A DNA stretch of 31,427 nt from a virus (IMGVR_UViG_2667527789_000018:1-31427); one strand, 5' to 3'; counted from the first letter of the stretch, positions 1,345-29,988 are shown. The notes: generated by a model from the letters alone, not told the origin. A program made the numbers and translations.

Positions 1345-1465
1345 TTGACATGGTGCCTATATAGGGACTAAATTCCCTCAAAACTGGAACCTATATAGGT
1401 TCCATTGATTTGAGAATAAACCAGCGTCTAAACGGTTTTGAGTGGTTTAGAAAGGGCTGGATCCT
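1345..1465. promoter_or_regulatory. immunity switch region: divergent early/repressor promoters with two palindromic operator-like sites
   Basis: TTGACA at 1345-1350; palindrome CCTATATAGG at 1356-1365 and again at 1390-1399, the second embedded in a perfect 18-bp palindrome GGAACCTATATAGGTTCC (1386-1403); sits between divergent C and cox. Confidence 0.6.
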
Positions 1466-1753
1466 ATGAGGGTACCATATATGGACGCTGAAAATTATGT
1501 GATTCAGTATCCGCTTGATGCGGTTCATGTGGATAAATTTGCTGATTTATTAGGGAAGCCAAAGACAGCCGTCAGTGAAATGGTGAAGGCAAATAAATTA
1601 CCAATTATTGAATTGCGTGATCCTTGCAAACCGAAGGCTCGTGCCGGTGAAAAATGGGTTTTCATTCCTGAGTTTAATCGCGCTGTACGTGAGGCGTTTT
1701 ATAACCGACCGGTTGAACAGCGTGATGCATGGCTTTTGTGGATGGGGTTGTGA
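1466..1753 (+). CDS. cox: Cox-like excisionase / early transcriptional regulator
   Basis: 95-aa first gene of rightward early operon; C-terminus RDAWLLWMGL resembles what I recall of P2 Cox; position identical to P2 cox. Confidence 0.7.
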   Translation: MRVPYMDAENYVIQYPLDAVHVDKFADLLGKPKTAVSEMVKANKLPIIELRDPCKPKARAGEKWVFIPEFNRAVREAFYNRPVEQRDAWLLWMGL

Positions 1754-28825: not shown

Positions 28826-29988
28826 TGCTGGATGCGCTGACATTTGATGCAGGCAGTACGCTGACGCCGGATTACATGCTGATGCTCGACAGCAGGGATA
28901 TTACCGGCAATATCAGCGACCGTCTGATGAGCATGACCCTGACGGATAACCGGGGCTTTGAGGCTGACCAGCTTGATATTGAACTGAACGATGCCGACGG
29001 GCAGGTCGGGCTGCCGGTTCGTGGCGCTGTCCTGACGGTGTATATCGGCTGGAAAGGTTTTGCCCTGGTATGCAAAGGGAAATTTACCGTTGATGAGGTT
29101 GAACACCGGGGCGCGCCGGATGTGGTCACCATCCGCGCCCGGAGTGCAGATTTTCGCGGGACGCTCAATTCCCGCCGGGAAGGCTCCTGGCATGACACCA
29201 CGCTCGGTGCGATTGTTGAGGCGATAGCCTCCCGTAACAGGCTGGAAGCCCGTGTTGCTCCGTCACTGGCCGGAATTAAAATCCCGCACATCGACCAGTC
29301 GCAGGAGTCTGATGCGAAATTCCTGACCCGTCTTGCTGAACGCAACGGCGGTGAGGTGTCGGTAAAAATGGGAAAACTGCTGTTTCTCAAAGCGGGGCAG
29401 GGGGTGACTGCCAGCGGTAAAAAAATCCCGCAGATTACCATCACCCGCAGCGATGGCGACCGTCATCATTTTGCGATTGCTGACCGCGGAGCCTACACAG
29501 GTGTAACGGCAAAGTGGTTACACACCAAAGACCCGAAACCGCAAAAGCAGAAGGTAAAACTGAAACGCAAAAAGAAAGAGAAACACCTGCGCGCACTGGA
29601 GCACCCGAAAGCAAAACCGGTCACGCAGAAGAAAGCGCCTAAAGTACCGGAAGCGCGCGAAGGTGAATACATGGCCGGTGAGGCTGATAACGTTTTTGCC
29701 CTGACCACGGTATATGCCACGAAAGCGCAGGCCATGCGCGCCGCTCAGGCGAAGTGGGATAAACTGCAACGGGGTGTTGCGGAGTTCTCCATCAGCCTGG
29801 CTACCGGTCGGGCAGATATTTACACGGAAACACCGGTTAAAGTGTCAGGCTTTAAGCGCGTCATAGACGAGCAGGACTGGACAATCACTAAGGTGACACA
29901 TTTTCTGAATAATAGCGGCTTCACGACGTCCTTAGAGCTTGAGGTCAGGCTTTCTGATGTGGAGTACGAAACAGAAGATGATGAGTGA
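28825..29988 (+). CDS. D: tail protein gpD
   Basis: 387 aa; last gene of the FI operon; Lys-rich internal segment. Confidence 0.88.
   Translation: MLDALTFDAGSTLTPDYMLMLDSRDITGNISDRLMSMTLTDNRGFEADQLDIELNDADGQVGLPVRGAVLTVYIGWKGFALVCKGKFTVDEVEHRGAPDVVTIRARSADFRGTLNSRREGSWHDTTLGAIVEAIASRNRLEARVAPSLAGIKIPHIDQSQESDAKFLTRLAERNGGEVSVKMGKLLFLKAGQGVTASGKKIPQITITRSDGDRHHFAIADRGAYTGVTAKWLHTKDPKPQKQKVKLKRKKKEKHLRALEHPKAKPVTQKKAPKVPEAREGEYMAGEADNVFALTTVYATKAQAMRAAQAKWDKLQRGVAEFSISLATGRADIYTETPVKVSGFKRVIDEQDWTITKVTHFLNNSGFTTSLELEVRLSDVEYETEDDE

Follow-up and report, generated by a model that had tools for sequence, protein, structure and literature searches.

A common and previously sequenced immunity switch of P2-like phages in which each predicted C repressor operator is itself palindromic

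The viral DNA analysed here, a stretch of 31,427 nucleotides that we refer to as the window, carries the int-C-cox immunity region of a common type of P2-like (Peduovirus) phage. Two copies of the 10-mer CCTATATAGG flank the -10 element of the predicted early (lytic) promoter Pe in this region, and we consider it highly probable, judging from the sequence and its relatives, that they are O1 and O2, the operators through which the C repressor acts on Pe in a P2-type C/Cox switch. The switch is of an ordinary, common and already sequenced type, and each of its two sites is itself palindromic. We also put forward, as a serious though still tentative possibility, that each half-site is a complete dyad-symmetric operator which would be bound symmetrically by one C dimer. 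If this is the case, then the C repressors of the P2 family would be ordinary palindrome binders, acting as two cooperating dimers about three helical turns apart, and what has been regarded as an unusual recognition of direct repeats would be a degenerate form of this two-palindrome arrangement.

The identity of the region is given by its gene order and homologies. A tyrosine integrase gene on the minus strand (1-1011, longest open reading frame 336 aa) adjoins the C immunity repressor gene on the same strand (1051-1344, 97 aa), the start codon of which appears as its complement, CAT, at 1342-1344; a Cox-family protein and then homologues of orf78, B and A are encoded on the opposite strand. 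The C protein has the HTH_3 fold of the P2 C family, matching Pfam HTH_3 above the cut-off and P2 C itself (PDB 2XCJ/2L49) with E = 1.9e-21 over residues 3-97. The product of cox (1481-1753, plus strand, 90 aa) matches Pfam Phage_Cox at 1e-23 and PDB 4LHF at 3.8e-20. With a helix-turn-helix C repressor, Cox encoded first in the opposing operon and two repeated half-sites at Pe, the locus has the make-up of the P2-type C/Cox switches of the Peduoviridae, and the first-pass annotation was right to describe it as a C/cox immunity switch. The ATG at 1481 is a likelier start for cox than that at 1466, and it is the annotated start in R18C, FSL SP-004, E. coli RefSeq records, Wphi and P37. The longest cox frame runs from 1466 and encodes 95 aa, as the L-413C annotation has it; this upstream ATG falls within a block that has no ATG in Wphi, and GAGGG at 1468-1472 appears to be the ribosome-binding site for the ATG at 1481. 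The integrase gene is annotated as 981 nt (326 aa) in L-413C, Wphi and RefSeq, compared with the 336 aa of the longest frame, and its true start is probably an internal ATG at about 981 (MAIKKL...).

Near-identical copies of this region are widespread. The C protein is 100% identical to those of L-413C, R18C, FSL SP-004, P24B2 and KC618326, the last of these being deposited as 'Escherichia phage P2', a prophage of the O157:H43 strain T22. The C-cox DNA is 100% identical in KC618326, P24B2 and a Salmonella phage, and 99.4-99.9% identical in L-413C (99.4%), R18C (99.7%), vB_YpM_50, P2_AC1, FSL SP-004 and others. Of 5426 complete E. coli genomes, 420 (7.7%) also carry the 181-bp switch, with one copy per genome and always in the chromosome. 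Gene order, homologies and prevalence together therefore identify the region as the immunity region of the common P2-like type. Within that type, a C protein at least 95% identical has been used to define an immunity class (PMC3448106), and the window shares with L-413C both a C protein at that level and the same C-cox spacer, which is identical to that of L-413C and R18C save for their operator and -10 substitutions. Given that identical sequences are deposited and the class is recognised, the class is already known, having been sequenced since L-413C.

The two copies of CCTATATAGG, at 1356-1365 and 1390-1399 and 34 bp apart from start to start, had been picked out in the first-pass annotation, and a reading of the sequence and a search of the window agree in recovering them. 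They are the sole matches in 31,427 bp, even when one mismatch is allowed (0.33 expected; 3 of 100 shuffles reach two), and the window holds no extra distant operators, a search with two mismatches adding only one unrelated site at 29492. The site that we term O1 (1351-1370) has its core inside the dyad TGGTGCCTATATAGGGACTA, in which eight of ten pairs match, and it fills the 18-nt spacer of Pe and runs 2 nt into the -10. O2 (1385-1404), at about +6 to +25 relative to Pe, has its core inside the perfect palindrome TGGAACCTATATAGGTTCCA; a perfect palindrome had been claimed at this second copy, and it is indeed there, although it extends over 20 bp rather than the 18 bp first reported. Both sites thus show two-fold symmetry over about 14-20 bp, the extent looked for in a dyad-symmetric operator of an HTH dimer. 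When the intergenic sequence 1345-1465 was subjected to 20,000 dinucleotide-preserving shuffles, an exact direct repeat of at least 10 bp appeared in 74 of them and a palindrome of at least 20 bp in one, and the repeat and the palindrome are therefore both well beyond chance. A search across species for two 10-mers with this 34-bp spacing recovered the same switch only in an Escherichia prophage. Matches to the pair in Aliagarivorans taiwanensis, a Prevotella MAG and a Solirubrobacterales MAG (L066, L067 and L069) proved to be unrelated short tandem arrays, which we treat as coincidental because no C or Cox homologue lies nearby. Among the papers searched, none gives CCTATATAGG in a phage context. 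Two further inverted repeats, both perfect, lie in the Pe leader and the Cox-box region, namely CTCAAAAC/GTTTTGAG (1377-1384 and 1435-1442, 50 nt apart) and TCTAAAC/GTTTAGA (1427-1433 and 1445-1451, 11 nt apart), and these could be opposite-orientation Cox boxes or leader RNA structure.

Pe is the sole sigma-70-like site between 1000 and 1800 and matches the consensus at 10 of 12 positions (TTGACA, 18 nt, TAAATT). Its -35 element (1345-1350, plus strand) abuts the C start codon, following directly after CAT as had been noted in the first-pass annotation, and the resulting CAT-TTGACA junction is the same as that of the annotated Pe of Wphi. We take TAAATT at 1369-1374 as the -10 because it aligns with TATATT in Wphi, and because the alternative, CTAAAT with a 17-nt spacer, would be inactivated in L-413C, a phage dependent on Pe in which the 1373 T>C change removes the invariant last T of that hexamer. 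The TATATA cores were also considered as -10 elements of other promoters and rejected, since neither strand offers an acceptable -35 at a suitable distance. By homology to Wphi, transcription from Pe would start at approximately 1379-1380; the Wphi Pe feature ends at 1793 of the Wphi sequence (L001), in CCCGTC, the homologue of which is CCCTCA in the window.

The -35 of Pe directly adjoins the C start codon, which leaves room for Pc only to the right, and the two promoters are predicted to stand face to face, as in the P2 family, and not to diverge as had initially been supposed. A consensus scan alone was ambiguous for Pc, returning several candidates with 7-8 of 12 matches, and conservation and the Wphi annotation were used instead. 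The resulting candidate is TGGTACCCT (TGnTAnnCT; 1469-1477, minus strand), with a predicted start near 1462-1464. Five heteroimmune relatives conserve this motif, and in Wphi it falls within the annotated Pc (L001 1880-1888), which suggests that Pc is an extended -10 promoter. The Pe and Pc transcripts would then overlap by about 83-85 nt, compared with the 82 nt reported for Wphi. The candidate Pc motif also overlaps the cox ribosome-binding site. The conserved block upstream of cox, 1427-1477, is a candidate Cox-binding region, in which an alignment with Wphi, P37, SW3 and the IMG/VR relative L035 reveals repeats of the AACGG/AAGGG type, spaced by about one helical turn, together with an invariant TGGATC. 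For comparison, the P2 Cox box is TTAAA(G/C)NC(A/C), with motifs of about 9 bp at 10-11 bp spacing which overlap Pc (PMC3936717).

In the mechanism that we propose, Pe would consist of the TTGACA, 18-nt spacer and TAAATT described above with a start near 1380, O1 would occupy the spacer and touch the -10, and O2 would lie just downstream of the start. C, a 97-aa HTH protein acting as a dimer and transcribed leftward from a weak Pc near 1469-1477, would place one dimer on each site; the two dimers, on sites whose centres are 34 bp or about three helical turns apart, would cooperate and bend the intervening DNA, and RNA polymerase would thereby be excluded from Pe. Shutting off Pe would in turn keep the lysogenic state, confer immunity against phages with the same sites and relieve interference on the opposing Pc. 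Strictly, 34 bp corresponds to 3.2 turns and is no exact multiple, which counts against the operator reading. Given that each site is dyad-symmetric, its two halves could make equivalent contacts with a symmetric C dimer, some +/-4 to +/-8 away from the dyad, with the central TATATA serving as a bendable spacer.

Natural variants of this class argue for an operator function at both sites, and short of experiments they are the strongest functional evidence. Published accounts, which leave the substitutions considered here unanalysed, describe L-413C as a mutant of the temperate phage L-413 that forms clear plaques (PMC3448106) and R18C as virulent (PMC6823313). Across 806-1631, which includes the whole C gene, L-413C differs from the window at three positions only: in O1, where 1356 C>A alters the opening base of the 10-mer; in the -10, whose fifth position is changed by 1373 T>C; and in the right arm of the O2 palindrome, through 1402 C>A. 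Between 990 and 1810, R18C differs only at 1364 G>T in O1, at 1390 C>T in O2 and at a common SNP, 1786. Each of these two independent virulent or clear derivatives therefore has one change per site and an identical C protein, although the 1402 change of L-413C lies outside the 10-mer and so counts only if the extended palindrome is recognised. Both 10-mers are kept in 33 of 34 IMG/VR contigs of the same class, the exception being R18C itself. Among the 420 E. coli loci, 315 match the window throughout 1345-1404 and another 80 have the single change 1374 T>C, by which the -10 becomes TAAATC, with 25 falling outside this classification; the other variants sampled from E. coli have TTGGCA as -35 or TAAACC as -10 and are never altered in the 10-mers. 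One change at each site in virulent phages, together with conservation in prophages, is the pattern that the mutational data from Wphi predict for operators, and it would support that function here.

Relative to the dyad, the substitutions fall at -5 and +4 in O1 and at -5 and +8 in O2. These positions would fit recognition helices that make their contacts at roughly +/-4 to +/-8, on either side of an AT-rich TATATA centre that can bend. One substitution per operator with the repressor intact may offer a testable molecular reason for the virulence of R18C and of L-413C, a phage used in plague diagnosis. A third lytic isolate of the same class, the Y. pestis phage HQ103 (L003), has both sites intact and a 7-bp frameshift deletion in C (1179-1185), which is a second route to virulence in the L-413C-type class. 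The TAAATC, TAAACC and TTGGCA variants (loci L063, L064 and L065), for their part, look like promoter-down alleles that lower the activity of the lytic promoter in resident prophages and leave the operators untouched.

Whether the symmetry of the sites is what C reads is a separate matter from whether the sites are operators. They may be C operators read as in P2, the palindrome then stemming from the AT-rich TATATA core and a flank that is due to chance or was otherwise selected; we consider this a credible but somewhat doubtful account. The characterised members of the family are described as binding non-palindromic direct repeats, a finding that puzzled the authors of the P2 C structure, in which a symmetric dimer looks like a palindrome binder and can be superimposed on P22 c2, its recognition helices lying about 26 A apart (PMC2995052). 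That structure speaks for recognition of a dyad, and the published binding descriptions speak for a P2-like mode. We scored dyad symmetry in 20-bp segments centred within each repeat, as pairs out of ten. The P2 sites lack such symmetry (5-6 pairs, p = 0.3-0.7), and in L035, the sister class nearest to the window, direct repeats of 15 bp score no more than 6 of 10; in the window itself, the left flank TGG is common to O1 and O2 as a direct repeat. All of this is in line with reading as in P2. On the other side, the window scores 8/10 at O1 (p = 0.009) and 10/10 at O2 (p < 0.0005), a palindrome as long as that at O2 arose in only one shuffle, as noted above, and the 1402 change of L-413C falls in a symmetric arm outside the direct repeat. 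Dyad-like units also occur in several other classes, such as GGTAG-N6-CTACC, ATGCC-N6-GGCAT and the O2 of 569R5, a palindrome with 10-bp arms. The other scores were 8/10 for O2 of L044, 7/10 for O1 of Wphi, phiT5282H and PhiR44_2 and for both sites of Shae_phiSM (p 0.06-0.08 in each of these 7/10 cases), and 5/10 for O2 of Wphi. Among the P2-type classes sampled, that of the window accordingly has the clearest dyad symmetry at its predicted operators. The first-pass annotation had set these palindromes against the direct-repeat half-sites of P2, and while the palindromy is real, the sites are also direct repeats in the exact arrangement of Wphi. If the sites are bound symmetrically, this class would be a natural substrate for settling how a symmetric C dimer reads non-palindromic repeats, the question to which the P2 C crystal structure gave rise.

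We think it unlikely that the extended palindrome at O2 was selected mainly as RNA, that is, as a stem-loop at the 5' end of the Pe transcript with a role in mRNA stability or attenuation, or as a structure in the Pc leader, with C binding secondary or confined to the 10-mer. A terminator scan does flag 1385-1404 and the following TTGATTTGAG as a hairpin with a T-rich tail, and folding of the Pe and Pc leaders also yields the hairpin (z = -1.85 and -3.32), but no Rfam family was matched, the only hit, to an miRNA, being due to chance (18 bits, where the gathering score is 90). In Wphi, P37, SW3, L035 and L044 an inverted repeat begins no more than a few nt from the Pe start, its sequence differing from one to the next. 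The Wphi palindrome is not needed for repression, since constructs with one arm deleted or the other omitted were still repressed by C without impairment (PMC1904263). An RNA role would, however, leave unexplained the exact 34-bp repeat shared with Wphi, and it would not account for O1, which lies upstream of the Pe start and nevertheless has the same 10-mer and 8/10 symmetry. The R18C substitution 1390 C>T is also informative, in that the Pe RNA retains a G-U pair there while the 10-mer in the DNA is altered. A stem-loop and an operator at O2 are not mutually exclusive, and a stem-loop function may coexist with the operator role that we favour and could account for part of the conservation of the O2 palindrome.

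It is very improbable that the palindromes are Cox-binding or shared C/Cox sites, and we rejected Cox operators at Pe, for although P2 Cox, when its concentration is high, protects DNA further towards Pe and regulates itself (PMC3936717), the P2 Cox boxes lie at Pc, where the comparable block here is 1427-1477, CCTATATAGG bears no resemblance to the Cox box, and the Cox proteins of the window, Wphi, P37, SW3 and L035 share 82-88% identity, while the Pe repeats of these phages are completely different and co-vary with helix 3 of C.

This last comparison, among P2-like immunity groups, is one that had been called for at the outset, and with Cox nearly the same in heteroimmune relatives whose repeats differ, it indicates that the sites track C and not Cox. 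Of the original proposal that the palindromes are repressor or Cox operators which set immunity specificity, the part concerning C is supported by the geometry shared with Wphi, the substitutions in virulent relatives and the conservation in prophages, and the part concerning Cox is not. The pairing of recognition helix and repeat can be followed through several relatives: helix 3 of the window C, PLSTLKKYEGGN, goes with CCTATATAGG; PLSTLKKYETGN in L035 goes with ATGGAACCTATATGT, present twice; SINTLKKYETGN in L044 goes with TATATGTA cores; and ALGT(V/L)KNYE(S/G)GH, in Wphi, SW3 and P37, goes with TT(N)(N)TGAC motifs. It is then the half-site sequence and the C recognition helix that would make an immunity type distinct, and not palindromy. 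The palindromes had been thought to indicate a distinct immunity type; the type does differ from P2 and Wphi, but palindromy is not the cause and the type, that of L-413C, R18C, FSL SP-004 and others, is not new. The 10-mer pair and the recognition helix of C together make a simple marker for immunity typing of P2-like prophages.

Two sister types stand close to the window. In L035/L038 and in L044, C is about 80-85% identical to that of the window and the first 20 nt of the C/Pe junction are the same, while altered repeats (ATGGAACCTATATGT twice in the former, TATATGTA cores in the latter) occupy the same places, 33 bp apart. These look like cases of recent specificity divergence through changes in helix 3 and in the operators. 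In P37 (L004), helix 3 of C is nearly identical to that of Wphi, and the candidate half-sites are inverted, CTGACTTAATGAC ... GTCATTAATCCAG, rather than direct. The orientation of half-sites in the C repressors of the P2 family is apparently not fixed.

Beyond the P2-like phages, the 434 and P22 c2 repressors and the controller protein C.Esp1396I, which have classical dyad-symmetric operators with tandem dimer sites, resemble C in being small HTH dimers, a likeness for which we claim no homology beyond the HTH fold. C.Esp1396I binds directly repeated palindromes with one dimer per repeat (PMC2995052), which is the arrangement that the window sequence suggests, although its sites are spaced at 15 bp compared with 34 bp here. 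Within the class of the window, L-413C and R18C have an identical C and substitutions at both operators, whereas the window has the wild-type sites that occur in prophages.

According to PMC1904268, the only phages with a located operator were P2, P2 Hy dis and Wphi. The window shares with P2 (class I) a homologous repressor, two half-sites flanking the -10 of Pe and a Cox counter-repressor, and its Pe and Pc are predicted to face each other as those of P2 do. It differs from P2 in that the P2 half-sites are the 8-bp GTTTAGAT, non-palindromic and 22 bp apart, and in that the C proteins are 43% and the Cox proteins 40% identical; having neither that half-site, nor that spacing, nor a P2-like C, the window falls outside class I. 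The organisation of the window parallels that of Wphi (class III), for which EMSA, SPR and reporter assays have defined a C operator of 10-bp half-sites, 34 bp from centre to centre, that flank the -10 of Pe (PMC1904268, PMC1904263). In the Wphi record AJ245959, where Pe and Pc are annotated, CAT-TTGACA is followed by 6 nt, TATTGGTGAC, 24 nt containing TATATT, and TATTGGTGAC again, the sites being at L001 1771-1780 and 1805-1814. The window has the same int-C-cox order, a 97-aa C, a TTGACA -35 abutting the C start, two exact 10-bp repeats at the same 34 bp from centre to centre around the -10 and a predicted Pc that faces Pe (transcript overlap about 82 nt in Wphi), and its Cox is 82% identical. 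The differences lie in the half-site (TATTGGTGAC in Wphi, CCTATATAGG here), in C, which is 56% identical and has the recognition helix ALGTVKNYESGH in Wphi compared with PLSTLKKYEGGN here, in the distance after the -35 (5 nt here and 6 in Wphi), in the Pe spacer (18 nt and 17) and in the dyads (8/10 and 10/10 here, 7/10 and 5/10 in Wphi); the window also lacks about 27 nt of the Wphi Pc region. With a different half-site and a C protein below 95% identity, the window does not belong to class III. Since both the half-site sequence and the recognition helix of C differ from those of Wphi, the switch should have another immunity specificity, and heteroimmunity with Wphi is expected.
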